64,000 nucleotides of DNA from Chthonomonadales bacterium (GCA_020849275.1 JADLGO010000052.1:52039-116038), one strand, 5' to 3'. Shown: positions 11,240 to 31,668, numbered from the stretch's first letter. The notes: a model not told the origin generated them from the letters alone. A program made the numbers and translations.

Positions 11240-12136
11240 CTATCGGCCCAGAAGGTTGCCGCCGCCCGCCTCATCGCGGATGTCGAAGTCCTTGCGGATA
11301 CCGAACCTGTCGCACACGGCGGCCAGCGCTTCGTCCGCCGCGCGGCAAGCGTCCGCCACCTGCTGCGAGGCCGAGCCGAGGCCGGAGCCCTGCATCCCGC
11401 TCAGCGTCTGGAGAGCGCTCTGCGGGTCGCCGCCCAGGGCCTGGCTCAGGCTGCCGCCAACCTGGGCGATGGCGCCTGCCGTCTTGCCGAGCAGGTCAAG
11501 GTAGGCGTCGCGCAGTCCGGCACAGGAGCCCGGCGCCGGCTTCGCCAGGAAGGCGGCCGAGAGTTGCTGCCAGTCGCCGCTCCAGCGCCCCAGCGACTGC
11601 TGGAACTCGTCATAGACCTGCCGCTGGGCCCCCGATATCTGGCTTTCGTCTCCCTCCATCTGCGCGGTGAGGTTGCCTGCAGTGATCCTCGTGCTCATCG
11701 CCAGCACCTCGCCCAGTTGCCGCCGCACGAGCAGGACGCGCTGGCGTTCGATGTCCTTCAGGAACTGGAGGTAGTCGATGACGTCGATCGGCTTCGGAGG
11801 GGCAGGCGCCACGATGCCGCCGCGCTCGGCGAGCGGCCCCGCGTCCGCCACGCGACCGGAGCGCTCGGTGAGCGGGCCAGGGTTCGCCACCGCGCCACGC
11901 GCCTTCACCACGTCCGCGCGCGGCCATCGCGCCCACACGATCCAGCTGGCTACGGCGGCCAGGACGGCCAGAGCCGCCGCTATACGCGCGGCGCGGCCGC
12001 GGCCGCCGGAGGGCACCGGGAGCGGCGCCACGGGGAGGGGCCCGCCGGACGCCGGCCGGGCGGGCGCCGGCGCGCCGCAGCGCATGCAGAACTGCGCGTG
12101 GGCCGGTATCTCCGCCTGGCAGTGGCTGCAGTTCAT
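11240..12136 (-). CDS. zinc-ribbon membrane protein of unknown function
   Basis: MNCSHCQAEIPAHAQFCMRCGAP (CxxC-N10-CxxC), one TM helix (IAAALAVLAAVASWIVW), then a ~200-aa helical domain. GGAGG RBS precedes the ATG at 12136. The track N-terminal extension was rejected. Confidence 0.6.
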   Translation of the reverse strand: MNCSHCQAEIPAHAQFCMRCGAPAPARPASGGPLPVAPLPVPSGGRGRAARIAAALAVLAAVASWIVWARWPRADVVKARGAVANPGPLTERSGRVADAGPLAERGGIVAPAPPKPIDVIDYLQFLKDIERQRVLLVRRQLGEVLAMSTRITAGNLTAQMEGDESQISGAQRQVYDEFQQSLGRWSGDWQQLSAAFLAKPAPGSCAGLRDAYLDLLGKTAGAIAQVGGSLSQALGGDPQSALQTLSGMQGSGLGSASQQVADACRAADEALAAVCDRFGIRKDFDIRDEAGGGNLLGR

Positions 12137-12242: not shown

Positions 12243-12271
12243 TGTATACCACGGGGCAGGGGAGGTGTCAA
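12243..12271 (-). promoter_or_regulatory. putative sigma70 promoter for the zinc-ribbon gene (TTGACA-17-TATACA with TG extension)
   Basis: The minus strand reads gTTGACAcctcccctgccccgTGgTATACAt. The -35 overlaps the stop codon of the upstream REC-PilZ gene. Confidence 0.45.
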
Positions 12272-13275
12272 CCGGAGCGGGCAGCGTCGACATGGGCGCG
12301 GACGCGCAGGGCGGCGGCCGGGCTGAGCTTCTGGAAACGCACGGCGGCCCGACATACCGGCTCGTCGCCCGCGCCGTCGGCCGTCTCGCTGCGGACCACG
12401 GTGCCGCGCGCAGCCACCGTGATCGGCGGATCCTCGTTCGGGAAGGACCACGCCAGAGTGACCGGCGCGCCCTCGGGCACCGGGCGGAGCGCCACGAGCG
12501 CCATGCCACCCTCTCCCACATCGCGGGCCATCGCGCTGAACACGTCCGGCGCGGCCGCGACGTCGCCCTCCGTCTCGCGCTCGACCCGCACGCGGACCTC
12601 CGTCACCAGTGGCGCTCGCACGTAGCGCCGACGCTGGCGGCGATGGATCGTTGCGGGTTGCGCGAGCACCACGCTGCCGGACTCGTCGGCGGCGAGCACG
12701 CGCGTGCGGAAGTGGTAGAGCCCGTCCTCGCCGCCCACCTGCACCGTGGCGGTGTCGCCGATCCCGAGGCGCACCGAGCGCTCCGGGTCCACCGCGAACC
12801 GGTCGCCGTTTCGGTAGGTGACGCGAGCAGCTGTCTCGCGCCTCTCCCCTGTGCCCTCAAGCTGGAGAACGACCGCTTGCCCCATGTGGATGGTGCCGAA
12901 CCGGTGGCCCAGGGTCACGTAGCGCCGCACGGCCTGCACAAGGTGGTCGAGGTCGAACGGCTTGAAGAACACCTCTTCGGCGCCGGCGAGGAGGGCCCGT
13001 GCCCGTAGCGGCTCCTCCTCATAGGCGGTCATGAGGAGGAACGGCACGTTGCCGGCGGCCGCGCGCAGGCGCGGCAGGGCGTCGAGGGCGTCGGCATCGG
13101 GCAGGCGCAGATCGAGCAGGACCAGGTCGGAGGATTGTTGGAGCAGTGACCGGAGCGCGCCCGCGGCGTCTCGCACCGTCTCGACGGCGAAGCCTGCCCG
13201 CCGAAGCTTGGTGGAGATGATGTGCGAGAAGTTCGGCTCGTCGTCGATGACCAATACTGCTGGCATCCGGAGCAT
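12268..13275 (-). CDS. response-regulator receiver fused to a YcgR-like PilZN + PilZ c-di-GMP-binding module
   Basis: REC: VLVIDDEPNF...LVLLDLRLPDAD...FFKPF. PilZ: RRQRRRYVR (RxxxR) and DVGEGGMAL (D/NxSxxG-like). Start trimmed to MLRMPAV at 13275. Confidence 0.8.
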   Translation of the reverse strand: MLRMPAVLVIDDEPNFSHIISTKLRRAGFAVETVRDAAGALRSLLQQSSDLVLLDLRLPDADALDALPRLRAAAGNVPFLLMTAYEEEPLRARALLAGAEEVFFKPFDLDHLVQAVRRYVTLGHRFGTIHMGQAVVLQLEGTGERRETAARVTYRNGDRFAVDPERSVRLGIGDTATVQVGGEDGLYHFRTRVLAADESGSVVLAQPATIHRRQRRRYVRAPLVTEVRVRVERETEGDVAAAPDVFSAMARDVGEGGMALVALRPVPEGAPVTLAWSFPNEDPPITVAARGTVVRSETADGAGDEPVCRAAVRFQKLSPAAALRVRAHVDAARSG

Positions 13276-13315: not shown

Positions 13316-13331
13316 TGCAAGTTCCGTGCCA
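13316..13331 (-). promoter_or_regulatory. sigma54 (-24/-12) promoter, perfect consensus TGGCACGGAACTTGCA
   Basis: The minus strand reads ctcTGGCACGgaacTTGCAtac. It lies in the 92-nt gap between the bEBP stop (13368) and the REC-PilZ start (13275). Confidence 0.7.
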
Positions 13332-13367: not shown

Positions 13368-14582
13368 CTAGGACGGCTCGGCCGCAAAGCGCTGGATGGT
13401 GGGCGGCAGCAGACTCGGATCTAGCTCGGTGGCATCCCGGTCGGCCATCACGACGGCCCGCTCGATGGCGTTCTCCAGCTCGCGCACATTGCCGGGGTAG
13501 CGGTAGCGCGTCAGCAGATCCGCGGCGGCCGGCGTCAGCGTCCGGATGTGGCGGCGGTTTTCGCGGCTGAACCTGGCGAGGAAGTGCTCGGCGAGCGGGA
13601 GGATGTCGTCGCGGCGGTCGCGCAGGGGGGGGACCGTGATCTGAATCACATGCAGACGGTAGTAGAGGTCGTCGCGGAAGGTGCCCTCGGCCACCGCGCG
13701 CTCCACGTCGCGGTTCGTGGCGGCGATCAGTCGGACGTCGACGCGCACCGTTTTCGTTCCGCCGATCCGCTCGAACTCCCGCTCCTGGATGGCGCGCAGG
13801 AGCTTAACCTGGAGCGCGGGCGGTATGTCGGCGACCTCGTCCATGAAGAGCGTGCCGTGGTTGGCGAGCTCGAACCGGCCAAGCTTCTGGGCGGCGGCGC
13901 CGGTGAAAGCGTTCTTCTCATGGCCGAAGAGCTCGCTCTCGAGGAGCGTTTCGGGCAGGGCCGCGCATGAGATGGCGATGAACGGTTGCTCCGCTCGGTC
14001 CGAATGGTGGTGGAGCGCACGGGCGATCAACTCCTTGCCCGTGCCGCTCTCGCCGCGCACCAGCACCGTAGCCCGGCTGTCGGCGGCGCGCTGAACCACC
14101 TGGAACAACTCCTGCATCTGCGGGCTGACCCCCACCATCTGCTCGACGCCGCCCACCGCTCGGCGAGGGCGTGAGGTCGGTCGTGGCGGGGCCTGATCAC
14201 GGTTCTCGAGCGCCTGGCGGACCAGCGCAAGGACCTCGTCAAGCTCGAACGGCTTCGTCAGGTAGTTGTCCGCGCCGAGTTTGATGGCCTCGACGGCTGT
14301 CTTGATCGTGCCATAGGCGGTGATCAGGATGGCGGCACAGTCGGGCGCGCTCCCCTTCACGCTTCGCAGGAGCTCGACTCCGTTCATGTCCGGCATGATC
14401 AGGTCGGTCAGCAGCAGGTCGACGTCTTGGGAGGCGGCCAGGGCAAGGGCCTTCTTGCCGTTCTCGGCGACGAGCACATTGTAACCGGACCGGGTCAGCA
14501 GGGCTTCCAGCACACGGCGGATATTGGGCTCATCGTCGGCGATCAGCACAGTCTGCGCGCTCGATGAGGCGTCTTTCTTCAT
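13368..14582 (-). CDS. sigma54-dependent response regulator (REC + AAA+), lacking a C-terminal HTH DNA-binding domain
   Basis: REC (VLIADDEPNIRR, DLLLTDLIMPDMNG). AAA+ domain has GESGTGKE Walker A, the NAFTGA (GAFTGA-type) loop and NVRELENAIERAVV. The protein stops 26 aa after that motif, so there is no Fis-type HTH. Start trimmed to MKKDAS. Confidence 0.9.
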   Translation of the reverse strand: MKKDASSSAQTVLIADDEPNIRRVLEALLTRSGYNVLVAENGKKALALAASQDVDLLLTDLIMPDMNGVELLRSVKGSAPDCAAILITAYGTIKTAVEAIKLGADNYLTKPFELDEVLALVRQALENRDQAPPRPTSRPRRAVGGVEQMVGVSPQMQELFQVVQRAADSRATVLVRGESGTGKELIARALHHHSDRAEQPFIAISCAALPETLLESELFGHEKNAFTGAAAQKLGRFELANHGTLFMDEVADIPPALQVKLLRAIQEREFERIGGTKTVRVDVRLIAATNRDVERAVAEGTFRDDLYYRLHVIQITVPPLRDRRDDILPLAEHFLARFSRENRRHIRTLTPAAADLLTRYRYPGNVRELENAIERAVVMADRDATELDPSLLPPTIQRFAAEPS

Positions 14583-14598
14583 GCTTCTCGCTCGCCTG

Positions 14599-17151
14599 TC
14601 AGTCGTCCGGAAGGCCGGACGACATGGGGTCGTTGTCCACGATGCGTACGGTCGTGGGCAGGTCGCGCATCTGCGGACGCCGCGGAAGGGTGATCTGGAA
14701 GCAGGTTCCCTCGCCGACCCGACTCGACACGGCGACCTGGCCGCCGTGGTTCTCGACGATCTTGTGGACGATGGCCAGACCAAGGCCGGTGCCCTTCGTC
14801 TTCGTGGTGAAGAAGGGCTGGAAGATCTCCTCCAGGCGCTCGGGCGCGATGCCGGTCCCCGTGTCGCTGAAGCGGATGGTGACGTTGCCGCCGCGGCCCT
14901 CCGCGCTCGTCGCGATGGTGAGCGTCCCCCCCGCGGCCATCGCCTGCGCGGCGTTGATCGCGATGTTCCGCATCACCTGCTCGATCTGCTTGGGGTCCGC
15001 CTGGATCCTGGGCAGCCGCGAGTCGGGGATGAAGCTCACCGCAACGCCACCGTCGCGAAACTCCGCGGCGAGGAGCGCCAGCGTACGCTCCACCAGCGCG
15101 TTCAGGTCGGTCGCGCGGAGGTCGAGTTGCATCGGGCGCGCGAAGTCGAGCAGGTCCGTCGTCGTGCGGCTCAGGCCGTTCACCTCGTCCACGATGATGT
15201 CGAGGAACTCCCGCAGCGGCACCAGTTCCTCGTACTCGTTGCGCATAAGCTGGGCGGCCCCTTTGATAGAGCTGAGGGGATTGCGGACCTCGTGCGCCAT
15301 CTTGGCGGCGAGCTGGCCGATGTCGGCCAGGCGCCGGATCCGCGCCATCTCCGCTTCCAGGCGGATGTTGCGGGTGACATCCTCCATGATCTGCACGGCG
15401 CCCTGAAGGTGGCCACGGCGGTCGATCAGCGGCGAGAGCAGCACGTTGAAGCTGGTCTCCTGGCCGCGCGGGTGCAGGACCAGGTTGTGAAGCAGGGCGG
15501 GCTTGCCGGTCGTCACGACCTGGCGCATCAAGGCTCGCACGCGCTGGGCCTCGTCGATCGGCAGGTCGAACCGGTCCACAAGGCGACTGTAGCCGTCGCC
15601 GGTCGCCTTCTCCTCGGCGACGCCCCACATCTCCTCCGATGCCTTGTTCCACCGGATGACGCGCCCGCCGGCGTCCACGACGACGACCGAGGCGGCGATC
15701 GACCGGAGGATATTGTCGGTCTGCGTGGCCAGGCGGTTCATCTCCTGGTAGCGCTGCTCCCGGTCCTCGTAGAGCTGCGCGGTCTCGATGGCCAGGGCCG
15801 CCTGGTTGGCGAAGGTCGTGAGCAGTTCAAGCAGATCGGGGTGGATCGGCCGCCCGCTCGTCTTGTTGTCCGCCACCACCGCGCCGATCGTGACGCCCTT
15901 CGCCATGATGGGTATGGCCAGGAAAGCGCTCGTGCCGAGCGAGCGCGCGAAGCCGCGGATCGGCTGACTGGCGTTGCGCGCGTCGGTCTCCACGATCGGG
16001 GCCTTCTCCCTGGCAACCCCGCCGACGACTCCTTCGCCCAGCCGTACGGGCTTGCGTCCGATCACCTCGGGTCGGTAGCCGCGCAGGATGCGCGGCACGA
16101 ACCGCTGGGTGTGACGGTCCTGGAGGTAGATGCAGCAGCGGTCGAGCTTCACCTCGCCCACGATGCTGTCGGCGACGCGCTCCAGGAGGCTGTTCAGGTC
16201 GCCGTGGCTCATGACGGCCCGGGTCAGCGATGCGAGCGTGGAGAGCTGCGATACGCGCCGGCGCAGGTTGTCGTATAGCTGCTTGTTCGTGAGGGCGAGC
16301 GCGGCCTGGAGCGCGACGACGGAGAAGAGGCGCAGGTCATCCTCGGTGAAGTCGGGCGCGGGACTGCGACGACGGATGCACATCACGCCGATGACGCGCG
16401 ACTCCTCGTCCTTCATCGGCACGACCATCGAGGACCCGATCTCCGGCCGCAGGGCGACCCCTGAGAGGCGCGGGTCCGAGTCGGGCTCGACGATCAGGAT
16501 GGGCTGGCCGGTCTGCGCCACGCGCCCGGCGATCCCCTCGCCGAGCGGCCGCTGAGTGACGAAGACGACGTCCTCCGAGAGCCCAAAGCTTGCGGCGATC
16601 GTGAGCGTGAGCGTGTCGGGGTTGAGGCGCATCAGCGAGCAGGCCTGCGCGTCCATCACCTTGGCGGCTCGCTCGGTGATGAGGTTCAGGAGCTCGGGGG
16701 TGCCGACGCTGTCGATCGCGCGCCCGATCTCGTAGAGGGTAGTGACCTCGCGGATGGGGCGGCCCGCCTGTCGGCGCGTCTCGCGGTCCTGCTCCACCAG
16801 GTGGGCGCGGTCGATGGCCGTCGCGAGTTGCGAGGCGACCGCCGACAGGAACCGCGGCGATCGCCTCGATGGCATGACGAGTGTGAGCGAGGCGGCCGGC
16901 GCGGCGCGCGTCGGCACCGAGATGCCGACAGCGGCCCGCGCGGATCCGTGGGGCGGCGCTTCCGCCGGCTCCTCGACGCCGGCCCCGCACCGAATGGGCG
17001 GCACGCACGCGATCTCGACCACGCCGCTCGTGGCGGCGCCGACCTCGACCAGGGCCGCAAGGCAGGCCTGCGCCACCTCGCGACATCCTTCCGCGCGTGC
17101 GGCAGCCTCGGCGACGGCGGCCAGGGCGGCAAGCTGGACAGCGATCTTCAT
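14599..17151 (-). CDS. soluble sensor histidine kinase (three GAF-like domains, PAS, HisKA, HATPase_c)
   Basis: H-box MAHEVRNPL, N-box MRNIAINAAQA, DTGTGI and GTGLGLAIV. I see no TM segments. Sits directly upstream of the bEBP gene with a 16-nt gap. Confidence 0.9.
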   Translation of the reverse strand: MKIAVQLAALAAVAEAAARAEGCREVAQACLAALVEVGAATSGVVEIACVPPIRCGAGVEEPAEAPPHGSARAAVGISVPTRAAPAASLTLVMPSRRSPRFLSAVASQLATAIDRAHLVEQDRETRRQAGRPIREVTTLYEIGRAIDSVGTPELLNLITERAAKVMDAQACSLMRLNPDTLTLTIAASFGLSEDVVFVTQRPLGEGIAGRVAQTGQPILIVEPDSDPRLSGVALRPEIGSSMVVPMKDEESRVIGVMCIRRRSPAPDFTEDDLRLFSVVALQAALALTNKQLYDNLRRRVSQLSTLASLTRAVMSHGDLNSLLERVADSIVGEVKLDRCCIYLQDRHTQRFVPRILRGYRPEVIGRKPVRLGEGVVGGVAREKAPIVETDARNASQPIRGFARSLGTSAFLAIPIMAKGVTIGAVVADNKTSGRPIHPDLLELLTTFANQAALAIETAQLYEDREQRYQEMNRLATQTDNILRSIAASVVVVDAGGRVIRWNKASEEMWGVAEEKATGDGYSRLVDRFDLPIDEAQRVRALMRQVVTTGKPALLHNLVLHPRGQETSFNVLLSPLIDRRGHLQGAVQIMEDVTRNIRLEAEMARIRRLADIGQLAAKMAHEVRNPLSSIKGAAQLMRNEYEELVPLREFLDIIVDEVNGLSRTTTDLLDFARPMQLDLRATDLNALVERTLALLAAEFRDGGVAVSFIPDSRLPRIQADPKQIEQVMRNIAINAAQAMAAGGTLTIATSAEGRGGNVTIRFSDTGTGIAPERLEEIFQPFFTTKTKGTGLGLAIVHKIVENHGGQVAVSSRVGEGTCFQITLPRRPQMRDLPTTVRIVDNDPMSSGLPDD

Positions 17152-17222
17152 AGTCGATAGCTCATGGCGTCGCTTCGGCCCAATGCGCGCGCGTGGCGCC
17201 GTGAGACGCGCGGATCCGCGCC

Positions 17223-17252
17223 ATTATAACACCGACGCCGCGCCGCGGACAA
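17223..17252 (-). promoter_or_regulatory. putative sigma70 promoter of the kinase-bEBP operon (TTGTCC-18-TATAAT)
   Basis: The minus strand reads cccTTGTCCgcggcgcggcgtcggtgtTATAATgg, about 70 nt upstream of the kinase ATG. Confidence 0.4.
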
Positions 17253-17274
17253 GGGTGCCGGCGGGAGACGCTCC

Positions 17275-17652
17275 ATGGCAAACGACATTCAGCGCAAGGC
17301 CATCCTCGCCCTGGGCGTCGTGGTGTTCGCTGCGATGCTCGGCGGCGGCGCGCTCCGCGGCGCCGCGCGCCGCGCGCAGCGGCGCGATCTTAACGGCGCT
17401 ACGACGCGGATCGGCACGGCGATCGTGGCCGCCCCCATCGTGCAGGGGCACGACCCGGTCGGCAAGGCCAGGGCGCCGTGGGCGCTCGTGCGCTTCGGCG
17501 GCCGGGTCTATACGGTGACTCGCGTGCGTGGTCCCGACGGCCTGCACGTCGGCCGCGCGGCGCGCATCGAGTACCGCGTCGGGCACAGCGGCCGCGTGTA
17601 TGTTGACCAGATCGAGCCGCTCCCGAAGCCCAAGCGCCCGGCGCATCCTTGA
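17275..17652 (+). CDS. small membrane-anchored hypothetical protein
   Basis: ATG with a GGGAG upstream, N-terminal TM helix (AILALGVVVFAAMLGGG), and G/C-rich third positions. No recognisable family. Confidence 0.5.
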   Translation: MANDIQRKAILALGVVVFAAMLGGGALRGAARRAQRRDLNGATTRIGTAIVAAPIVQGHDPVGKARAPWALVRFGGRVYTVTRVRGPDGLHVGRAARIEYRVGHSGRVYVDQIEPLPKPKRPAHP

Positions 17653-17678
17653 CTTCGCGTCCCGGCCTGTTACAGAAT
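17649..17678 (+). promoter_or_regulatory. weak sigma70-like promoter in front of the TPR gene (TTGACT ... TACAGAAT)
   Basis: cTTGACTtcgcgtcccggcctgtTACAGAATtg. The -10 register is ambiguous. Confidence 0.3.
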
Positions 17679-17713
17679 TGTCGGTGTTCGCAGCGCTTCG
17701 TGGAGACTGCCGT

Positions 17714-20299
17714 ATGCCCTGTCGACGCGCCACGGTCTGCGTCGTGCTCGCCGCCTTGCTCGCCTTCCCGCTTCCCATCATCGCGCAGCGCGCCCCGGCG
17801 GCTCCTCCGCAGGGCACGAATGCCGGCCATCCCTCGCCTGCCGCCGGGGCCGCACGGATGTTCGAGAGGGCTCTCGCCCACCAGCGCGCGGGTCGCGTGG
17901 CCGACGCCATCGCTTCCTACCGAAACCTGATCGCGGTCGCACCGAAGGCGTTCCCCGCCCACATGAACCTGGGCCTCCTTCTGCGCGCCCGCGGTGACTG
18001 GAAGGGGGCCGAGCAGAGCTTTCGGCGCGCCGCCGCGGCCGATCCGCGCAGCGCGCTGCCGCACGTCCAGCTCGCGGAGCTGAGCCTGCTCCGGCGCCGG
18101 CCCGCCGACGCTTGCAGGGAGGCGCGGCGGGCCGTTGCGCTCGATGCGAGCAGCGCTCAGGCGCACTTCTCCTACGGCGCCGCCCTTGCGGCCACGGGCG
18201 CAGCGTCGGAGGCCGAGAAGCAGCTTCGGGAAGCGGCTCGCCTCGCTCCCGGCCACGCTCCCACCTTCGTCAGTCTGGGCCTCGTGCTGGCGGCGCGCAA
18301 GCGCTATGCGGAGGCCGTGCAGGTCCTGCGGAAGGGAGCCGATCTGGAGCCGAGCTCGGCAGCCGCCCGGATGGCGCTCGGCGACGTTCAGCGACGGGCG
18401 GGCGACCTGGTTGGCGCCATCGCCGCGTTCGCGCGCGCTGCCGAGCTGGCGCCGGGGGATCCCGGCGCCTGGTTCAACCTGGGCGTGGCCAGGCAGACGC
18501 TGGGCGAGAAGCGCGGCGACAGCCGCCTCACGCAGGAGGCCGTGACGGCCTACCTGCGCGCGCTCGGGGCCGAGCCGCGTCACCTGCCATCGCGTGTCAA
18601 CGTCGGCCGCCTCTACTTCGAGTTGCACAACTACGGCCAGGCAACACACCATTTCCGCCTGGCCCTGGCACGGCAGCCCGCAAACCGCAGGCTGATGACG
18701 GACACCGCGGTGGCGGAGACCTGGGCGGCGCAGGCGGAGCGCGACCCGGCGAAGCGTGATGCCTACCGGCGCATGGCGGAGGCGCGCTTCCGCGCTGTGC
18801 TCAAGGCGGAGCCGCTCAGGCCGGCGTTCGTCGGTCTGGGTTACCTCTGCGAGCAGCAGGCGAGGCTCGACGCAGCCAAGGCGGTCTACGCGAGCTGGGC
18901 GAATGCCCTGCCGAAGGACCCGGCGGCCCGGGTGGCTCTTGGGCGCGTCCTGGAGGCGAACAAGAACGCCGACGAGGCGGTGGACGCCTACCGGGCCGCG
19001 ATCCGCCTGGCGCCGACGAGCGCGGACGCATACCTCGCTCTGGGCCGGATCCACGAGGCGCGATCCAGAATGGACACCGCGCGCGACACGTACCGCGCCC
19101 TCGTTGCCGCCAACCCGAAGAGCGCGCAAGGGTACCGTGCCCTCGGCCTGCTCTACCAACGCCAGGGCAGCTCTGTCGAGGCCGTTGCCGCCTTCGACGC
19201 CATGAAGCGACTGGATCCGAAGGACACGTTTCCCTACACTTCGATCGCCGCGCTCTATGAGCGGCGGAGCATGCCCGAGGAGGCGGCGCGCGAGTACCGG
19301 GCCGCCGTGGCCCTGCGGCCTGACGACCTCGCGCTGCGCGCTAGCCTGGCCCGGGCGCTCGAACAGCGGAAACAGTATGGCGAGGCGGCCGACCAGTACC
19401 GCGAGATCGTGAAGCGGCGGCCGTCGGAATCGGCATATGCCGTTCACATCCCGCGCCTGATGGACCTCGCCGGCGACACCGTGGGCGCCGTCGCCGAGTT
19501 CCGACGCATGGCGGCCGCGCAGCCCGCTGACCCGGCGTACCGCCTTGGTCTCGCCGCCTTGCTAGAGAGGCACGGCCGCTGGTCAGAAGCGGTCGTCGAG
19601 TATGAGGCCATCGTCGATGCCAGCCCATCCTCGGCCGCGTGGGCCTGGATGCGGGCCGCGTCTGCCTGGGAGCAACTCAAGAAGCCGGCCGACGCGCGAG
19701 TGGCCTATGCGCGCGCCATTGAGGCGGGCGCCGAGAGCGCCGATGCGTTCCAGCGGCTGGAGGCCCTCTTCGCCGCCGAGAACGCGAGCGATCGATGGTT
19801 CGAGTTTCTGAAGGCGATGGTGGCGAAGCGGCCGTCCTCGCCTAGCGTCCTCAACCGCCTGGAGGCCGCCGCCGCGAATCTCAAACGGACCGACGAGGCG
19901 CTGGCAGCGCTCAAGGCCCAGGCGGCGCGCGGCAGCGGTGACCGCGTCTTCGTGACCGCCTACGCGGGCATCATGATGCGCGCGGGGCACACGGCGGACG
20001 CGATCGAGGCCTACCGTGCCTACCTCAAGCTGGCGCCGGGAGATGTCACCGCCCGCGTGGCGCTCGCCGGGCTGTTCGATTCGGCCGGCCGGCTGCCCGA
20101 GGCGATCGCCGCCTACGAGGCGGTGGTGGCGGCGCCGCGCATCGCGGCTCCGCAACTCGCCGCCTACCGCGTGGCGCTGGGCGGGCTCTACGAGCGTAAC
20201 GGGGAGAAGGCAAGGGCCATCGCGCAGTACCGCGAGACGCTGAAGACGGACCCGGGCAACGCGGCGGCGGCGGCGGCCATCACGCGCCTGGGGGGCTGA
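17714..20299 (+). CDS. secreted multi-TPR repeat protein (~860 aa), PrsT-like
   Basis: Signal peptide MPCRRATVCVVLAALLAFPLPIIAQ, then TPR-like repeats (A..YR.A....P....A...LG) along the whole length. Start trimmed to the ATG at 17714 with GGAG upstream. Confidence 0.8.
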   Translation: MPCRRATVCVVLAALLAFPLPIIAQRAPAAPPQGTNAGHPSPAAGAARMFERALAHQRAGRVADAIASYRNLIAVAPKAFPAHMNLGLLLRARGDWKGAEQSFRRAAAADPRSALPHVQLAELSLLRRRPADACREARRAVALDASSAQAHFSYGAALAATGAASEAEKQLREAARLAPGHAPTFVSLGLVLAARKRYAEAVQVLRKGADLEPSSAAARMALGDVQRRAGDLVGAIAAFARAAELAPGDPGAWFNLGVARQTLGEKRGDSRLTQEAVTAYLRALGAEPRHLPSRVNVGRLYFELHNYGQATHHFRLALARQPANRRLMTDTAVAETWAAQAERDPAKRDAYRRMAEARFRAVLKAEPLRPAFVGLGYLCEQQARLDAAKAVYASWANALPKDPAARVALGRVLEANKNADEAVDAYRAAIRLAPTSADAYLALGRIHEARSRMDTARDTYRALVAANPKSAQGYRALGLLYQRQGSSVEAVAAFDAMKRLDPKDTFPYTSIAALYERRSMPEEAAREYRAAVALRPDDLALRASLARALEQRKQYGEAADQYREIVKRRPSESAYAVHIPRLMDLAGDTVGAVAEFRRMAAAQPADPAYRLGLAALLERHGRWSEAVVEYEAIVDASPSSAAWAWMRAASAWEQLKKPADARVAYARAIEAGAESADAFQRLEALFAAENASDRWFEFLKAMVAKRPSSPSVLNRLEAAAANLKRTDEALAALKAQAARGSGDRVFVTAYAGIMMRAGHTADAIEAYRAYLKLAPGDVTARVALAGLFDSAGRLPEAIAAYEAVVAAPRIAAPQLAAYRVALGGLYERNGEKARAIAQYRETLKTDPGNAAAAAAITRLGG

Positions 20300-23695: not shown

Positions 23696-23711
23696 TGGCA
23701 CAGTTTGTGCA
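23696..23711 (+). promoter_or_regulatory. sigma54-type promoter TGGCACAGTTTGTGCA upstream of the EPS operon
   Basis: GG and GC elements sit at exact -24/-12 spacing, with one deviation (GTGCA instead of TTGCA). Located in the 470-nt intergenic region about 365 nt upstream of the wzz-like ATG. Confidence 0.5.
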
Positions 23712-24075: not shown

Positions 24076-25599
24076 ATGCGGATATACGGCTCCTCGCCGC
24101 TGCACAAGTACGCGGAACTCATCTTTCGATGCAAGCGCATGTTCATCGTCGCCGTTATCCTCGGCACGCTGGCGACGAGCCTCGGCGTCTACATGCGACA
24201 GGACAAGTATTCGGCGTTCGTGGTGATCGCGCTGACGGGCGACACCGCGACCGGCGAGGCGATGTCGTCGACCGACGGCGGGCGCGACAGCAACCCGATC
24301 TACGCCGCGGCGCAGCGCAAAGCCGCCCGCCTCATCCAGTACTGGTTGCCCGTGGATCGCGACTTTACGGCCGACTCCATGAAGAACCTGGGTCTGGAGG
24401 CCAAGTACGGCGACAAGTTCGACGCGAAGGTGAGGGCCGTGCGTGATGAGCTCGCCAGCAGCGCCGCGCTCGTCACGCCGCAGCACCTCAAGCTCCAGCT
24501 CACGTGGGACGACCCCAAAGAGGCCGAGGCCATCCTGAACGAGGTCTACGGCGCCTTCTCCCGCAAGACGGTCGCCGAAGAGACGGCCGTTCAGACGAAC
24601 AAGAGGCAGGTGCTCGAGGAGCAGTTCAAGCTCTACAACAAGCGCGCGAACGAGCAGGCCACGCGTCGTGTCAAGTACCTCAAGGACCACTACTGGGAGA
24701 ACCCGGCGCTCCTGGGCCAGTCGCTCGGCTCTCTCGAGACCACCCAGCAGTCCATCGCGCAGGCGGAGACCACCCTCGCGGACGCCCGATCGCGCCAGCA
24801 GCGCATCGACCAGGAGCTGACCCGCGTGCCCGAATGGGTGACCGGCGCCGAGACGACGCGCACCATCACCGAGGACCCCTCGCTCCAACTGACCACCCAG
24901 CGCACCGACCTTCAGCGCCAACTCCAGCAGGCCAAGCAGCGCTACAACGACCTGCACCCGGTCGTGCAGGATCTGCAGAAGCAGATCATTGCAATCGACA
25001 AGCAGATCGCCGACGTGAGGAAGCAGCCGCGCGTGGCGACCAACGAGCAGAGCGAGGTGCAGAGGACGCGCAACCCGGTCTGGATCACGCTGAAGCAGTA
25101 CCAGGCTCAGCTCGGGATGATGATCCAGGGCTATGACCGGCGCATCGGGGAGCTTCGTGCCCAGCTCGCCCGCCTGGAGGGCCGGGTTCGGGCGATGCCT
25201 GGCGAGGAAGTGGCCTTCCAGAAGGTGGAGAAGGACTACGAGCTCGCCAACAATCTGCGTAACCAGGTGCGCGCCCGACTGGCCGCCGCGCAGTATGACG
25301 AGGAGCAGAGCAAGCTCACCCAGGCTCGCCTGGTCAAGCTCGAGTACGGCCCGATCTCCGAGAAGGTCGTCGCTGGCGGCAAACGCGTGCTGCTGCTGGC
25401 GCTCGGGCCCCTGCTCGGAATCCTGATCGCCTTTAGCTTCTCGCTCCTGGCCGAGAGCCTCGACCACACGCTGCGCACGCCGGTCGAGGTGGAGCGGTTC
25501 CTCGGCAAGCCCGTGCTCGCCGTCATTCCGCGCATGCGTACTCCGCGTGAAGGGCGCAAGCAGCTCGCGGGCGCAACGAAGCGCAGCATCTCGTCGTGA
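24076..25599 (+). CDS. polysaccharide co-polymerase / chain-length determinant (Wzz/GumC/EpsF-like, PCP-2b)
   Basis: N-terminal TM (MFIVAVILGTLATSLGVY), a long coiled-coil periplasmic region and a C-terminal TM (VLLLALGPLLGILIAFSFSLL). Followed by a separate BY-kinase gene. Confidence 0.85.
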   Translation: MRIYGSSPLHKYAELIFRCKRMFIVAVILGTLATSLGVYMRQDKYSAFVVIALTGDTATGEAMSSTDGGRDSNPIYAAAQRKAARLIQYWLPVDRDFTADSMKNLGLEAKYGDKFDAKVRAVRDELASSAALVTPQHLKLQLTWDDPKEAEAILNEVYGAFSRKTVAEETAVQTNKRQVLEEQFKLYNKRANEQATRRVKYLKDHYWENPALLGQSLGSLETTQQSIAQAETTLADARSRQQRIDQELTRVPEWVTGAETTRTITEDPSLQLTTQRTDLQRQLQQAKQRYNDLHPVVQDLQKQIIAIDKQIADVRKQPRVATNEQSEVQRTRNPVWITLKQYQAQLGMMIQGYDRRIGELRAQLARLEGRVRAMPGEEVAFQKVEKDYELANNLRNQVRARLAAAQYDEEQSKLTQARLVKLEYGPISEKVVAGGKRVLLLALGPLLGILIAFSFSLLAESLDHTLRTPVEVERFLGKPVLAVIPRMRTPREGRKQLAGATKRSISS

Positions 25600-25652
25600 A
25601 GCCCGACGGCGGAGCTCGGGCCAGGTGCCCTCGGCGCGCCTGAAGGAGTGCC

Positions 25653-26384
25653 ATGCCAGAGTCCACACGGTTCGACGACGCGCCCGCCGGCGGGCTGGTG
25701 CCGCTGAGCTCCTTCGAGTTCCGGCACGAGCCCTCGGGGGCTGGCGCCAACGGCGCGTCGCTGGTTCCAGAGGAGTACGCACGGCTCCACGCGGACATCG
25801 AGAGGGCGGCCAGCCCCTCCCGGTGCTTTGTCGTCGGCGTCACCTCCGCCGTCTACGGCGAGGGCAAGACCACGGTCGCGCTGAACCTGGCGGGGACCAT
25901 CGCGCAGAACTCGGAGGCGCGCGTCGCGCTCGTGGACTTTAACCTGCGCAACTGGGACATGCAGACCCGGCTGAACATCGCCTCCGCGCCTGGCCTGGTC
26001 GACGTCCTCGAGGGCTCCGAGGACGACCTGACCGCCATCGTGCAGCGGACGGAGCTAGACAACCTCACCATCATCCCGGCCGGGCGCGCGGCCGCGAACC
26101 CGTCGAGGCTGGTACGCTCCTCGCGGCTGGCGGAGGTCGTCAGCACTCTGCGCATGTCCAACGACTTCATTGTGCTGGATATGGCGCCCGTGCTGCCCGT
26201 GGCGGACACCAAGAGCCTGGCGAAGCACCTGGACGGCATCGTCATGGTGGTGCGTGCCGGCGTCACGCCGCGCGAGATCGTGGGCCGGGCCATCGACGCC
26301 GTGGGCAGCGATAAGGTGCTGGGGGTCGTTCTCAACGGCGTCGAGTCGGCGCTGCCGTCATGGCTCCACCGGTACTTCTCATAG
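25653..26384 (+). CDS. BY-kinase-type P-loop ATPase (CpsD/CapB/EpsG-like)
   Basis: Walker A GVTSAVYGEGKTT, Walker A' VALVDFNLR and Walker B FIVLDMAPV. GAAGGAG RBS. Confidence 0.85.
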   Translation: MPESTRFDDAPAGGLVPLSSFEFRHEPSGAGANGASLVPEEYARLHADIERAASPSRCFVVGVTSAVYGEGKTTVALNLAGTIAQNSEARVALVDFNLRNWDMQTRLNIASAPGLVDVLEGSEDDLTAIVQRTELDNLTIIPAGRAAANPSRLVRSSRLAEVVSTLRMSNDFIVLDMAPVLPVADTKSLAKHLDGIVMVVRAGVTPREIVGRAIDAVGSDKVLGVVLNGVESALPSWLHRYFS

Positions 26385-27628
26385 GTCTGTGGAGCGCGGC
26401 GCGCGTGGTCCTGCTCGTCGCCGTCGGCCTCGTCTGGGCCTACTGGTGCCTATGCGCGCTCTACCTTCTGGTGCTGGCCGTGGGCGCCGCGGTGTGCCGC
26501 AGGCGCCCACGGCGCTTGGTGGGGTCTGAGCGACGGTTCGCGCTGCTGGTGCCGGCCCACGACGAAGCCCTGCTGATCGGCGAGGTGGTTGAGGGCTTGC
26601 GCCGCCTCGACTACCCGGGCGATCTGCGAGCGGTCATCGTCATCGCCGACAACTGCTCGGACGCCACGGCGACCGCCGCGAGGGAACACGGCGCCGAGGT
26701 GCTCGAGCGCACCGACCCCGCCCGACGGGGTAAGGGGTTCGCCCTGGAGTGGGCGATCGGGCGGGTGCTGGCCGATGCGCGCCGCTTCGACGCGGTGGTC
26801 GTGCTGGACGCGGATTCCGAGTTGTCCGCCGGTTTCCTGCGAACGATGGACGCGGCGCTCACGGAGGGGCACGGCGCGGTTCAGGCGCGCTACGATGTGC
26901 TTAACGTGCACGAGAGTTGGCGCACGCGGCTGATGGCCTGTGCCCTGGCGCTGGCCCACCATGTGAAGCCGCTCGGCCGGCAGCGGCTGGGCCTGGCCGA
27001 TGGCCTCAAGGGCAATGGGATGTGCTTCGCGCGCGAGGTGCTCGAGCGCGTCCCGTGGTCTGGCGAGAGCGTCACCGAGGACATCGAGTACACGCTGCGC
27101 CTTGCGGAGGCCGGCATCCGGGTGGAATACGCGCCCGACGCCGAGGTGCGGGCACAGATGCCCACGACGGCCCGACAAGCGTCCACGCAACGACAGCGCT
27201 GGGAAGGCGGCCGCTACGCGCTGATGGGCCGGGCGGCGCGGCTCCTGGTACGCGGCGTGCGCGGGCGCGATGCCCTCTTGGCCGACCGTGCGGCCGACCT
27301 GCTGGTCCCGCCGTTCGCCGAGTTCCTGGCGGTGCCCTGCGCGCTGATCGTTCTCGGAGCGGCGCTCGCGTTGAGCGGCATCGATGCCTCCGGCGGGCGC
27401 GTGCTTGCGGCGGCGTGGGGCGCCGTTCTGGCGGCCGCCGTAATGTATCTGGTGGTCGGCCTCTTCGTGGCGCGCGTTCCCGCGGCCGTCGCATGGGCGC
27501 TGGCGGCGGCGCCCGTCTATGCGGTCTGGAAGCTTGCCACCTGCGCCGCGCTGCTGGCGCGCGGGGGGACGGGGGGGTGGCGCCGCACGGAGCGCCGCGC
27601 GTTTCGCGAGGGAGGGCCGGGCCGGTAA
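26360..27628 (+). CDS. membrane-embedded family-2 glycosyltransferase (synthase-like, D,D,D,QxxRW type)
   Basis: N-terminal TMs, LLVPAHDE, VLDADS, TEDIEY and QRQRWEGG (QxxRW), plus C-terminal TM helices. Confidence 0.85.
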   Translation: MAPPVLLIGLWSAARVVLLVAVGLVWAYWCLCALYLLVLAVGAAVCRRRPRRLVGSERRFALLVPAHDEALLIGEVVEGLRRLDYPGDLRAVIVIADNCSDATATAAREHGAEVLERTDPARRGKGFALEWAIGRVLADARRFDAVVVLDADSELSAGFLRTMDAALTEGHGAVQARYDVLNVHESWRTRLMACALALAHHVKPLGRQRLGLADGLKGNGMCFAREVLERVPWSGESVTEDIEYTLRLAEAGIRVEYAPDAEVRAQMPTTARQASTQRQRWEGGRYALMGRAARLLVRGVRGRDALLADRAADLLVPPFAEFLAVPCALIVLGAALALSGIDASGGRVLAAAWGAVLAAAVMYLVVGLFVARVPAAVAWALAAAPVYAVWKLATCAALLARGGTGGWRRTERRAFREGGPGR

Positions 27629-27658
27629 CGGCCGGGCGCGGCGCGAAGCTGCGGCGAG

Positions 27659-29104
27659 ATGGGCTCAACCGGTATGCGCGACACCATCGCAGTTATGGGC
27701 GTGCCGATCGACAACGTGGACATGGCCCTCGCGCTGGAGCGCATCGACGCTTTCGTGGCGGCGGGCGGCTTCCACCAGGTGGCGACGGTCAACACGGACT
27801 TCGTCGTGAAGGCGCTCCACGACGCCGAGCTGCGCATCATTCTGCGCCAGGCCGACCTGGTGCTGCCCGACGGCATGCCGATCGTGATGGCCTCGCGTTG
27901 GCTGCGGGCGCCGCTGCGCGAGCGCGTGACGGGTGCCGACCTGGTGCCGCTGCTGGCGGCCCGGGCCGCTCGCCGCGGGTACCGGCTGTTCATGCTCGGC
28001 GCGCGACCGGACGTCGCCGCGGCGGCGCGTGAGCGCATGGAACGCGAGAACCCGGGACTGCGCGTCGTTGGATGCATGTCGCCGCCCGTCGGCAGCGTCG
28101 TCACGATGGATAACCAGAGCATTCTGTCCCGGATCGACGAGGCGCGGCCGGACATACTTCTCGTGGCGTTTGGCAATCCCAAGCAGGAGAAGTGGATCCA
28201 CATGCACCGGGATCGCTTGCGCGTCCCCGTGTGCGTGGGGGTGGGGGGAACGTTCGACTTCATCGCCGGTGCAACGGCGCGAGCGCCAGGATGGATGCAG
28301 CGTTCCGGGCTGGAGTGGTTGTACCGGCTGGCCCAGGAGCCCCGGCGCCTGTGGCGGCGGTACGGCAGCGACTTGCTGTGGTTCGGCCGTTTCCTGGCCG
28401 CCCAGGTGCGCCACACGCGTTCCCGCGCAGGGGCAGCGTCCTGCGATCTCCGCGTGGCGGAGTGCGGCGGGGCCGTCGTCGCCTCCGGCGCCGGCGCCCT
28501 GGGGCGCTCGACGGTGCCGGCGCTCCACGCCGCCGCGGAGCGCGCCCGCGCGGCGGGAGGCCTTCTCGTCGTCGACCTTGCCGGCGTCTCGGCGGTCGAC
28601 AGTGCGGCCCTGGGTGCGCTGCTCGTGATGGCCGTGCGGGGCGGCGACGGGGGGCCCTCCGTGCGTCTTGCCGGCGCGGCTCCCGCCCTGCGGCGCTCGA
28701 TGGACGCTGCGCATGTGCTGGACGCGGTGCCCGCGTTCGCCACGGTGGATGAGGCGCTGGCCGCGCCCACGCCGCGGCTCGAGCCGCTCCGCGCCACCGC
28801 AAGCGCTGGATGCGCGGCCATCCGCGTTCAGGGGCCCGCCGACTGGCGCGTGGCCGAAGAACTGCGGCGCCAGTGCGCGGCGATGGGCGACGGCGTGCGC
28901 CAGGTACGGTTTGACCTGTCGGGGGCGAGCTACGTGGGCGTCGCGATGCTCGCCGCGCTCCACTCGGAGCGGGAACGCCTCGCCGCGCGCGGCGTGTCGG
29001 TCGAGGTTATCGAAGGGCCCGTGGTGCGGGCGGCGCTGGCCCGCGAGCGGCTGCCGGGGCTCTTCGGCGGCGGCCGTGCGGCGACGGGCGCCCCGTGCGC
29101 ATGA
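27659..29104 (+). CDS. WecG/TagA/CpsF-family (GT26) glycosyltransferase fused to two C-terminal STAS domains
   Basis: GT26 part: VNTDFVVKA, LVLPDGMPIV, AFGNPKQEKW and WLYRL. STAS-1 has VVDLAGVSAVDSAALGALL. STAS-2 has VRFDLSGASYVGVAMLAAL. Confidence 0.8.
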   Translation: MGSTGMRDTIAVMGVPIDNVDMALALERIDAFVAAGGFHQVATVNTDFVVKALHDAELRIILRQADLVLPDGMPIVMASRWLRAPLRERVTGADLVPLLAARAARRGYRLFMLGARPDVAAAARERMERENPGLRVVGCMSPPVGSVVTMDNQSILSRIDEARPDILLVAFGNPKQEKWIHMHRDRLRVPVCVGVGGTFDFIAGATARAPGWMQRSGLEWLYRLAQEPRRLWRRYGSDLLWFGRFLAAQVRHTRSRAGAASCDLRVAECGGAVVASGAGALGRSTVPALHAAAERARAAGGLLVVDLAGVSAVDSAALGALLVMAVRGGDGGPSVRLAGAAPALRRSMDAAHVLDAVPAFATVDEALAAPTPRLEPLRATASAGCAAIRVQGPADWRVAEELRRQCAAMGDGVRQVRFDLSGASYVGVAMLAALHSERERLAARGVSVEVIEGPVVRAALARERLPGLFGGGRAATGAPCA

Positions 29105-29123
29105 CGCCAGGGGGGGCGGCAAG

Positions 29124-29258
29124 TTGCGGTTCGAGTTCCAGGTTCTGTTCATGCTGATCACCATCGGCCTACTCACGCGCAAGCTGTCGTGGCGTGGGTG
29201 GTTCTTCGTCGCGCTGTTTGTGCTGTCATGGATGATGTTCGACTGGATCAAGGGCTAG
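29124..29258 (+). CDS. unannotated 44-aa two-TM small membrane protein (candidate)
   Basis: TTG at 29124 lies 7 nt after a GGGGGGG run. The product is [44 protein letters not shown]. Third codon positions in this frame are almost all G/C, whereas the overlapping track frame (29189..) is T-rich at third positions until about 29260. Confidence 0.45.
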
Positions 29259-29293
29259 GCGCGGTGGGGGCTGAGCGCCACGCGGCGCGCGGC

Positions 29294-29914
29294 ATGGCTG
29301 CCGAGCGCGACGTGCTCGTGGTCGACGCGCTGGAGGCAGCGCCCGGGAACGCGCTGCTCGTGCGCGCGGCCTGGGCGCTGCGGCAGGACCTGATGGCGCT
29401 GCATCCGCGGCTTCGCCTCGCCAACGCGCTGCTGTTCTTCTGCCCGCACTATGCGCTGAACCGCGTGCGAACGGCCATCTACCGCGCCGTGGGGGCGCGC
29501 ATCGGAACCGGGAGCCTGATCCTGGGCAGCATTCACATGTGCGGGTTCGGGCGGTTCTGGGAGCGCCTGACGGTCGGTCAGTACTGCCTGGTGAACGCGC
29601 CGCTCTACCTGGACCTGAACGCTCCGATCACCGTGGAGGACTGGGTCGCCATCGGTGATCACGTGCGGCTGATCACCACCAGTCACGAGATGTCGTGCCC
29701 CGACAAGAGGTGCGGGGCGTTCCTGCCGGCGCCGATCGTGCTGGAGCGCGGCTGCTGGATCGGCTCCGGGGCAACGATCCTGCCGGGAGTGACCGTGGGG
29801 CGCGGGGCGGTGGTCGGAGCGGGCGCGGTCGTGACGCGCGATGTGCCGCCGCACACGCTGGTCGGCGGCGTGCCGGCGAAGGTCATCCGCGACCTTCCGG
29901 GGGCCTCGCCATGA
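29294..29914 (+). CDS. hexapeptide-repeat (left-handed beta-helix) O-acetyltransferase
   Basis: C-terminal [43 protein letters not shown]. The start is ambiguous (GTG 29264 or ATG 29294). The track start at 29189 is rejected on third-position composition. Confidence 0.78.
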
Positions 29915-31668
29915 GGCCGCCTCGCGGCTGGGATGCCGGTCGCCTGGCGGCGACGGCGCTGGGCATGGCGGCCGCCGCGCTCGTCCTGTGGAATGTTGGC
30001 GCCGGGCGCGCTCCCGCGCTCGCCGCCGGGCCGGACGACGAGGCTGCGCCCGCCAGCGGGATCGTGCGCATCGATGTTGACGTGAGCGCCGACCGGCGCC
30101 GGATCGACCCGGCCATCTACGGCATGGCCTTCGCGTCGGAGAGCCACCTTCGGGACCTGCGGCTCGGGTCCAACCGGTGGGGCGGTAACCCGAACACGCG
30201 CTACAACTGGGAGGGCAACTTCTGGAACAAGGCGCGCGACTGGAAGTTCTGGAACTACGCCGACGACGCGCCCGGCGACCGCACGCCGGCCATCGTGGCC
30301 GACCGTTTCGTCGCCGCCAACCGCGCGGCCGGCGTGCCCGTGGTGTTCACCATCCCCACGATCGGCTGGGTCGCGCGAAACGGTGACAACAGCACCTACT
30401 CTGTCGACGTGCCGCCCCGAGGCGGGCTCCCGGTGCGGCCGGGGAGCGAGGCGATTCGTGGCTATGACCCGGCCGCGAACCGCAAGCGCACCAGCGTACG
30501 CTCCTTCGCGCGCAAACGCGGCGCCTACGCCTTCCCACCCGACCTGGGCGATGGGGTGGTCTACCAGGACGAGTTCGTACACCACCTGGTGCGCAAGTTC
30601 GGCCACGCCTCGGAGGGCGGGGTCCGCTACTACGCGATGGACAACGAGCCGGACCTGTGGGCGGCAACGCACACCGACGTACATCCCGTAGCGCCGGGCT
30701 ACGACGAGCTCTTGTCGCGCTTCCTTGACTATGGGACGGCGGTCAAAGCCGTCGACCCGTCGGCGAGCATCACCGGACCGGTATCGTGGGGGTGGACGGG
30801 CTATGTGCACTCGCCGCGCGACGCGGTGGCCGGGAACTGGGGCGGCCGGCCGGATCGACGGGCGCACGGCGACATGGAGTTCGTTCCGTGGTTTCTGAGC
30901 CAGGTCAGACGCCACGATGCGCGCGCGGGACGGCGAACGCTCGACGTGCTGGACGTGCACTTCTATCCGCAGGCAGCGGGCGTGTTCCAGGGCGAGACGG
31001 ACGCGCTCACCAACGCATTGCGGCTTCGCAGCACGCGGGCGCTCTGGGACCCCGCCTACCGCGACGAGTCCTGGATCGGCGAGGCCGTCCGGCTCGTGCC
31101 GCGCCTTCGCGAATGGGCGCGCCGCCACTACCCGGGCACGAAGGTCGCGATCACGGAGTGGAACTGGGGCGCCGACGGCACTGTGAACGGCGGCCTGGCG
31201 GTAGCGGAGTGCCTGGGCATCTTCGGGCGCGAGGGGCTGGACCTGGCCAACTACTGGACCGTGCCCGCGGCGGGCTCGCCGGGCTACAATGCGTTCAAGC
31301 TCTACCGCAACCCGGACGGCCGGGGCCGTGGCTTCGGGGACGTGTCGGTGCGCGCTCGCAGTCAGGCGCCATCGGCGATCTCGTGCTTCGCGAGCATCGA
31401 CACGCGGACGGGCGACCTCGTCACGATGCTTCTGAACAAGCTGCCGGACCGGTCCCTGCGCGCGAGTATGGCTCTGCGTGCACTCTCCTGGAGGCCAGCG
31501 GAGACGACGGTGTGGCAGCTTGACGGCGCCGGCGCGCTGCGCGAGGGCTACGCGCCCATCGAGTCCGGAGGGCGCTACGAGATCGGGCTGGCGCCCAGCA
31601 CGGCGACGCTCGTTCGCTACGAGCGGCCGGCAGCCGGAAGCGCCCCTGAGCGAGGTGAGAAGCGATGA
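29911..31668 (+). CDS. secreted clan GH-A glycoside hydrolase, GH44-like endo-beta-1,4-glucanase
   Basis: Signal anchor ([16 protein letters not shown]), then [16 protein letters not shown], which I recall as a GH44 signature. Also AMDNEPDLW (acid/base NEP) and ITEWNWG (nucleophile). The ATG overlaps the upstream stop (ATGA). Confidence 0.72.

Follow-up and report, generated by a model that had tools for sequence, protein, structure and literature searches.

The window analyzed here is a stretch of 64,000 nucleotides of DNA from a Chthonomonadales bacterium (GCA_020849275.1 JADLGO010000052.1:52039-116038), with a G+C content of about 70%. This study concerns a pair of genes on its minus strand, a sensor histidine kinase (14599..17151, 850 aa) followed after 16 nt by a sigma-54 activator, or bacterial enhancer-binding protein (bEBP), that lacks a DNA-binding domain (13368..14582, 404 aa), together with the promoters and genes that this pair may serve. 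The closest genome loci belong to Chthonomonadales, Capsulimonadaceae and other Armatimonadota, and one protein of the window shows 100% identity with IT208_13870 from a Chthonomonadales bacterium MAG. A sample of 162 loci of relatives, each readable over at most 21 kb, was drawn from genome and metagenome collections; single loci are cited by L numbers where they have to be told apart. Protein families were scored with Pfam and NCBIfam hidden Markov models (HMMs) against their curated cut-offs, and transmembrane (TM) segments were judged by hydropathy scan.

The activator starts with MKKDASS and is composed of a receiver (REC) domain (Response_reg, residues 12-121; PF00072, 107 bits), a sigma-54-interacting AAA+ domain (Sigma54_activat, residues 150-315; PF00158, 241 bits) and a lid (AAA_lid_14, residues 321-398), which stops 6 aa short of the protein end at residue 398 of 404. 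The Walker A and B motifs and the F-T of the GAFTGA loop are intact, and the loop reads EKNAFTGA, with its first glycine replaced (NAFTGA). The C-terminus lies 26 aa past ELENAIERAVV, and Pfam detected no HTH_8 in the protein at E<=0.1. An initial annotation of the window had described the same domains, loop and end point and had argued that the helix-turn-helix (HTH) was not lost through a frameshift, and our results bear this out. Only 92 nt separate the stop codon (TAG, 13368-13370) from the next ATG at 13275, and the gene that begins there codes for a receiver domain from its outset, which leaves no room for an HTH concealed by a frameshift; relatives also share the end point. Having a sigma-54 AAA+ domain and a GAFTGA-type loop while lacking a DNA-binding domain, the activator belongs to type Ic of Francke 2011, as do FlgR and CtcC. 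AtoC, NtrC, ZraR and NifA rank above PrsR (fifth) among its NCBIfam matches, none of which reaches its own cut-off. The closest solved structures are those of Aquifex NtrC1 and NtrC4 (4L4U, 1NY5, 3DZD; E 1e-107 to 5e-92).

The absence of a DNA-binding domain is a conserved trait and not an accident. The best 120 database homologs of the activator are all 391-438 aa long, their tails end 21-39 residues past an ENAIERA-type motif and HTH_8 was found in none of them (0/120). Their loops read NAFTGA in 96, GAFTGA in 13 and SAFTGA in 9 cases. A protein ending 21-42 aa past the position equivalent to ERAVV is encoded in 33 of the 162 fetched loci; these are all the relatives of at least 55% identity and, going by the genome records with a named taxon, mostly Armatimonadota. 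The 124 more distant relatives (<=53% identity) all carry a Fis-type HTH tail. A neighbor-joining tree of the REC-AAA+ core puts the 33 short forms into one clade with no HTH-bearing sequence inside, and a small group of Polyangiaceae/Myxococcales regulators branches as its sister. A single loss of the HTH took place in the ancestor of this clade, and the short form has been kept since.

It is highly improbable that we are dealing with a truncated pseudogene, an assembly artifact or a protein uncoupled from sigma-54 through its NAFTGA loop. The replaced first glycine is what would favor such an explanation, but this exchange (G1-to-N) occurs in experimentally validated activators and is found in the only activator of Paracoccus and Ruegeria (Francke 2011, PMC3162934), and it is compatible with activity. 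In addition, length and NAFTGA are kept in more than 100 independent clusters, the codon statistics of the gene are typical of the genome, the remaining AAA+ motifs named above are intact and a sigma-54 promoter is conserved beside the gene. Because of this conservation and of the adjacent promoter, both the pseudogene reading and the reading of a protein no longer dependent on sigma-54 are contradicted.

The kinase consists of a degenerate region (residues 1-140) followed by GAF, GAF, PAS, HisKA and HATPase_c domains. Three GAF domains and a PAS domain had been claimed in the initial annotation. Two GAF stretches and the PAS domain (PAS_4, residues 483-594) were recovered with Pfam along with HisKA and HATPase_c, while the supposed third GAF at residues 1-140 could not be confirmed: it has no Pfam match, BLASTP aligns it weakly with the C-terminal half of the second GAF domain (GAF2; E 0.003 in that single comparison), and its single-sequence AlphaFold model is of low confidence (predicted local distance difference test, pLDDT, 52). 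The hydropathy scan gave no convincing TM segment, as had also been stated before, since of its two weak windows one is rich in Ala and the other falls within a GAF domain; the kinase looks soluble. AtoS heads its NCBIfam matches, all of them below cut-off, and GAF2 is most like the GAF of NifA/PtsP. Of the 33 related loci, nearly all that extend far enough upstream of the activator show a kinase with GAF domains there. A sigma-70-like promoter, TTGTCC-18-TATAAT with a TG (17223..17252, minus strand), lies 5' of the kinase-activator operon and is a consensus match only (10/12). In the Capsulimonadaceae and related loci L002, L003, L005 and L007-L010, tblastn with the kinase of the window gives two separate matches upstream of the activator, which points to further GAF domains in this sub-clade or to a second protein with GAF domains.

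The kinase and activator genes form a conserved unit with a gap containing a sigma-54 promoter, a gene for a REC-PilZ response regulator and a gene for a zinc-ribbon membrane protein. The promoter, TGGCACGGAACTTGCA (13316..13331, minus strand), was recognized by sequence and pattern match in the 92-nt gap and is of textbook -24/-12 form; it begins 37 nt after the activator stop and ends 40 nt before the ATG of the REC-PilZ gene. The window holds two exact copies of TGGCAC-N5-TTGC where 0.09 would be expected, and none of 100 shuffled sequences reached two (0/100). A third site has one mismatch. The three sigma-54 promoter-like sites reported in the initial annotation are thus all present, and all recur upstream of orthologous genes in relatives. 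Using the motif class TGG[CT]A[CT]-N5-NTGC[AT] on both strands of 456 kb (the window and 33 relatives), we found a motif in the equivalent activator/REC-PilZ gap of eight relatives (L004, L018, L081, L082, L083, L085, L088 and L099). Half of all occurrences in the 456 kb (10/20) sit just upstream of a REC-PilZ gene.

The REC-PilZ protein (12268..13275, minus strand, 335 aa) combines the Pfam domains Response_reg and PilZ (PF07238, 37.9 against a cut-off of 22.5). The sequences RRQRRRYVR and DVGEGG are present, and the protein thus shows the PilZ domain with RxxxR and D/NxSxxG that marks PilZ receptors. The phospho-acceptor Asp, RxxxR and the DxSxxG-like motif are kept in nine orthologs, with S/G variation at the third position of the latter. 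Judging from these residues, the REC-PilZ proteins are probably phosphorylatable receptors of cyclic diguanylate (c-di-GMP). The last gene of the cassette encodes the zinc-ribbon protein (11240..12136, minus strand, 298 aa; Zn_Ribbon_1), which has one TM segment at residues 48-71. In the recurring gene order the zinc-ribbon protein has about 295 aa, and both genes are found 3' of the pair in L081 and L082. REC-PilZ alone was detected 3' of the pair in L004, L012, L018, L083, L085, L088 and L099, and in L001 a receiver-domain gene and a zinc-ribbon homolog lie downstream of it.

The second exact sigma-54 promoter, TGGCACGCATCTTGCA (43120..43135, minus strand; sequence and pattern match), lies about 30 nt upstream of a gene for a multi-TM protein of 193 aa (42507..43088, minus strand), a candidate sigma-54 target with no Pfam or NCBIfam match. 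The family is rare, with 10 clusters in 5.8 billion proteins. A sigma-54-like motif was found upstream of the gene in all five loci examined (the window and L163-L166; 5/5), in one of them with CGG for TGG. The gene is apparently monocistronic. The window, L164 and L165 share a micro-synteny of a Mur/FolC-type ligase gene, the 193-aa gene, a gene on the other strand encoding about 212 aa, and a gene for a Wza-like exporter. An operon of the 193-aa gene with the Wza-like export gene was considered and ruled out, because a convergent plus-strand gene (~41800-42483) separates them. L164 and the cassette locus L081 lie on different contigs of one assembly, so sigma-54 promoters are scattered within a single genome.

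The third, sigma-54-like promoter, TGGCACAGTTTGTGCA (23696..23711, plus strand; pattern match), precedes by about 365 nt a cluster of exopolysaccharide (EPS) genes. This cluster of tightly spaced genes on the same strand (24076..40130, plus strand, about 16 kb; NCBIfam and Pfam scans) is located about 9 kb from the kinase-activator pair. It encodes a chain-length determinant, a tyrosine autokinase, a GT2 protein, a WecG-STAS protein, a GH44 hydrolase, a Wzy polymerase, glycosyltransferases, a peptidyl-prolyl isomerase (PPIase)-like protein and, as the last gene, an exosortase. The exosortase (38460..40130, plus strand, 556 aa) is fused to an EpsI-like domain. It passes the cut-offs of TIGR02602 (130.2 vs 105.55) and TIGR04178 (62.5 vs 23) and matches Exosortase_EpsH (PF09721, 185 bits) and DUF3485 in Pfam; the subtype models XrtW, XrtD and XrtA all stay below cut-off. 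The front part of the operon is conserved in order in L167-L169. A strict sigma-54 motif lies in the long leader of L167 (-367) and L168 (-207) and a weaker one in that of L169, so that sigma-54 motifs were found upstream of the EPS operon in three of four loci, with one additional weaker case.

Two features of the EPS locus stand apart from the question of its promoter. Its leader (23712-24075, plus strand, about 365 nt) is rich in GGA motifs, and leaders in relatives measure about 170-370 nt. An Rfam search of the leader gave only a sub-threshold match to RsmW, a small RNA of the Csr/Rsm type (24.6 vs 52 bits, E 0.039). The leader may be a post-transcriptional control region, or the RsmW match may have arisen by chance. 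Furthermore, the WecG/TagA-type glycosyltransferase (27629-29104, plus strand) is fused to STAS domains resembling anti-sigma-factor antagonists, and the fusion is kept in L167-L169. This unusual pairing suggests control of the glycosyltransferase by partner switching.

From the observed domain architecture, the observed promoters and the conservation of both, we propose a two-component system, spread over Armatimonadota among the loci covered, whose HTH-less sigma-54 activator works without an enhancer, like FlgS/FlgR or CtcB/CtcC, and serves the REC-PilZ, 193-aa and EPS promoters; we give this reading a probability of roughly 0.6. The soluble GAF-GAF-PAS kinase would sense a cytoplasmic signal through its GAF and PAS modules and phosphorylate the receiver domain of the activator. 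Phosphorylation could then release assembly of the AAA+ ring, as in NtrC1, one of the closest solved structures. The ring would contact the sigma-54 holoenzyme directly from solution and need no enhancer, as has been shown for H. pylori FlgR and proposed for Chlamydia CtcC. Consistent with this, no k-mer was shared upstream of 14 sigma-54 promoters beyond what shuffled controls gave, in a test of low power, and the window and related loci contained no second sigma-54-type AAA+ gene. The conserved output of the system would be the promoter just downstream of the activator gene, which is predicted to drive the REC-PilZ and zinc-ribbon genes in an activator-dependent manner. The same activator likely serves the promoters of the 193-aa membrane protein and of the EPS/exosortase operon as well. 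In this way the signal would be tied to c-di-GMP-dependent control and to the production of cell-surface polysaccharide.

Several points weigh against this proposal. Control by the activator is a prediction from sequence for every promoter discussed here. About 365 nt, an unusually long distance, separate the EPS promoter from the start codon, and this promoter has GTGC as its -12 element. Capsulimonadaceae-type loci (L002, L003, L005, L007-L009 and others) have no REC-PilZ gene and no sigma-54 motif after the activator. The cis-linked target is therefore kept in only part of the clade, and in L002, L003, L005 and L007-L010, where neither gene nor motif follows the activator, the targets must lie elsewhere. 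The low power of the k-mer test weakens the case against an enhancer. rpoN is not in the window. Finally, HTH-bearing paralogs elsewhere in the genome could serve the EPS and membrane-protein promoters.

This last point leads to a different and rather unlikely arrangement, in which the HTH-less protein is a local activator of the adjacent REC-PilZ promoter only and other, HTH-bearing activators drive the EPS and 193-aa promoters. In its favor, conservation in cis is limited to the REC-PilZ target, and the EPS and membrane-protein loci of relatives show no linkage to the pair. However, no means is known by which an activator lacking a DNA-binding domain could confine itself to one promoter, a shared upstream motif was not found at the other promoters, and no second sigma-54-type AAA+ gene was found in the 64-kb window or in 456 kb of related loci, about 520 kb of sequence. 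Another possibility, to which we give still less weight, is that DNA binding is supplied in trans, either in mixed rings with a DNA-binding partner or through recruitment by one, as with FleT of R. sphaeroides. FleT works with FleQ. HTH-less activators of this kind are known, and FleT is listed as type Ic in PMC3162934, but the conserved cassette contains no gene for such a partner: REC-PilZ and the zinc-ribbon protein have no DNA-binding domain in Pfam, and a conserved upstream motif was not found at the promoters.

The closest parallel in architecture is H. pylori FlgS/FlgR, in which an activator of REC and AAA+ domains without a DNA-binding domain is likewise paired with a cytoplasmic histidine kinase. 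FlgS is a soluble kinase. Activation by FlgR from solution is documented (Brahmachary 2004, cited in PMC3162934). The two systems differ in clade and phylum, and the NAFTGA loop and the GAF and PAS sensors of the kinase are found on the Chthonomonadales side. The predicted targets here are REC-PilZ and EPS/exosortase genes, whereas those of FlgR are flagellar genes, and the organisms here are free-living, with chromosomes of 3.8-4.4 Mb in complete relatives, whereas those with FlgS/FlgR are host-restricted. Chlamydia CtcB/CtcC also has an NtrC-type response regulator without HTH, listed as type Ic in PMC3162934. Enhancer-free activation by CtcC has been proposed (PMC3162934, PMC7482065), and PMC7482065 describes the Chlamydia sigma-54 regulon as enriched in membrane and surface functions. 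The relationship is not close, though: no CtcC-specific family is among the top matches of the activator, and the present system differs in lineage, in its sensors and in the conserved target promoter linked to it in cis. Aquifex aeolicus NtrC1 and NtrC4 align with the activator in full length over REC and AAA+, and by analogy NtrC1 is a likely template for receiver control of ring assembly, but the Chthonomonadales activator ends at the lid.

A further comparison is with the proteobacterial PrsK/PrsR/PrsT system, since the initial annotation had taken the kinase, the activator and a TPR (tetratricopeptide repeat) protein for a variant of this trio. The TPR protein (17714..20299, plus strand, 861 aa; TPR families) is a neighbor outside the conserved unit. 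It had been described as a secreted protein of about 860 aa encoded divergently. The size is right and the N-terminus, MPCRRATVCVVLAALLAFPLPIIAQRAP, is hydrophobic and signal-peptide-like, but the arrangement is not as described, as a 125-aa ORF (open reading frame) lies between the TPR gene and the kinase gene. This ORF (17275..17652, plus strand) is the one that is truly divergent from the kinase; it has a coding-type G+C profile at third codon positions (GC3), one TM segment and no Pfam match, and it also falls outside the conserved unit. recR directly follows the TPR gene on its 3' side. Within 7-10 kb around the pair, no TPR homolog was found in any of the 33 related loci, and neither recR nor the 125-aa ORF adjoins the pair in them. 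The TPR protein is a bystander.

The Prs system as defined by Haft 2006 (PMC1569441) comprises a Fis-type enhancer-binding regulator, which acts at an enhancer termed motif 1, a kinase that spans the membrane and carries a novel sensor domain, and a lipoprotein with TPRs. There are real similarities: here as there, a sigma-54 activator and a kinase are found near an exosortase/EPS locus with a -24/-12 promoter, and a large TPR protein is nearby. The activator shows the receiver and sigma-54 interaction domains of PrsR, which is among its full-length matches, but it scores 380.6 bits against TIGR02915 with a cut-off of 502.6, the match spans only profile positions 1-375 of 445, and it has neither the C-terminal Fis-type HTH nor a detectable motif 1 at its promoters. 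TIGR02916 (PrsK) gives 12.2 bits with the sensor half of the kinase against a cut-off of 300, PrsK is outside the best 25 families for the whole kinase, and the kinase has neither a convincing TM segment nor a PrsK-specific sensor domain. TIGR02917 (PrsT) is the top NCBIfam match of the TPR protein, with 202.4 bits in four stretches against a cut-off of 312.2; such a match in separate stretches is expected of any long TPR protein. No lipobox Cys follows its hydrophobic core, as read directly from the N-terminus with no dedicated lipoprotein predictor run, and its gene does not co-occur with the kinase-regulator pair. PEP-CTERM substrates were sought in the window with the regular expression [VIAL]PEP in C-terminal tails, which gave only two implausible ORFs.

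HMM scores below cut-off for all three proteins and the lack of synteny of the TPR gene in the 33 loci rule out membership of the trio in the Prs families, and the claim of a variant Prs trio is rejected. That the three proteins are divergent PrsK/PrsR/PrsT orthologs which have lost the TM sensor and the HTH is very unlikely. One could cite in its favor the exosortase/EPS operon with a sigma-54-like promoter in the same window, the similar lengths of the TPR proteins with PrsT at the head of the list, the full-length PrsR match and the statement of Haft 2006 (PMC1569441) that non-proteobacterial regulators were still to be found. Besides the scores and the missing lipobox, linkage and PEP-CTERM tails, it is contradicted by the four families that outscore PrsR on the activator and by the sister clade of the activator, Polyangiaceae/Myxococcales regulators not identified in this analysis as PrsR. 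The Prs label should be dropped for these genes. Since the exosortase/EPS operon lies in the same window, it is reasonable to put forward, as a hypothesis, a functional parallel, namely sigma-54 control of an exosortase locus outside Proteobacteria.

An HTH-less response-regulator activator of sigma-54 with a soluble kinase is already known (type Ic, Francke 2011). The present case adds, as something new, a large clade of such activators, for the most part Armatimonadota among its named members, in which the sigma-54 target is cis-linked and conserved and an exosortase/EPS link is plausible. Nothing relevant on sigma-54 in Armatimonadota turned up in the library searched. To our knowledge, sigma-54 activators working without DNA binding come from few cases only, FlgR, CtcC and FleT. 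A large conserved clade in barely studied environmental bacteria would make enhancer independence a stable design and not a relic. The candidate regulon is small, with the REC-PilZ gene, a rare membrane protein and the exosortase/EPS operon, and would link sigma-54, c-di-GMP signaling and surface polysaccharide. Such a link agrees with the view of sigma-54 as a controller of the bacterial exterior, put forward in PMC3162934. The activator is also a candidate regulator for exosortase loci outside Proteobacteria, a question left open by Haft 2006 (PMC1569441). A bolder version, which we regard as possible but doubtful, is that this single HTH-less activator is the master switch of the whole sigma-54 regulon in Armatimonadota, coupling a cytoplasmic GAF/PAS metabolite sensor to exosortase-linked polysaccharide and to the expression of a c-di-GMP receptor. 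If true, enhancer-free sigma-54 control would be normal throughout a free-living phylum, whose complete relatives have genomes of about 4 Mb, and no peculiarity of the few host-associated or flagellar systems.

Other genes in the window bear on the lifestyle of the source organism. A protein with GGDEF and HD-GYP domains for c-di-GMP turnover adjoins a beta-propeller protein, and flagellar export is represented by flhF (SRP54-type GTPase) and flhA (FHIPEP) (55331-57412 and 59612-63105, both minus strand). These genes indicate that the organism is probably motile and uses c-di-GMP, which fits a PilZ target.

Directly downstream of the REC-PilZ and zinc-ribbon genes, a cluster for an NAD-linked bidirectional [NiFe] hydrogenase occupies positions 3-10600 on the minus strand. 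It contains hoxE/F/U/Y/H-like genes at 5670-10600 and the maturation genes hypA, hypB and hypF, with a malic enzyme-phosphotransacetylase (PTA) fusion between hypB and hypF. The interval that separates the zinc-ribbon gene from hoxE (~10600-11240, about 640 nt) has a GC3 profile without a clear coding frame. In this gap, Rfam gave only a sub-threshold match to mcrA (19.5 vs 57.6 bits), and a terminator-like site on the minus strand was not found.

A 186-aa ORF (46202-46762, minus strand) has a match to IscB, an RNA-guided nuclease, that is confined to the HNH region (65.8 bits vs a cut-off of 175), and is probably a stand-alone HNH endonuclease or a remnant. The signal recognition particle (SRP) RNA, dnaX and ybaB are grouped at 50529-53098 (plus strand), an arrangement seen in many bacteria. 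The usual follower of ybaB, recR (20329-20928, plus strand), is instead located about 30 kb away, right after the TPR gene.

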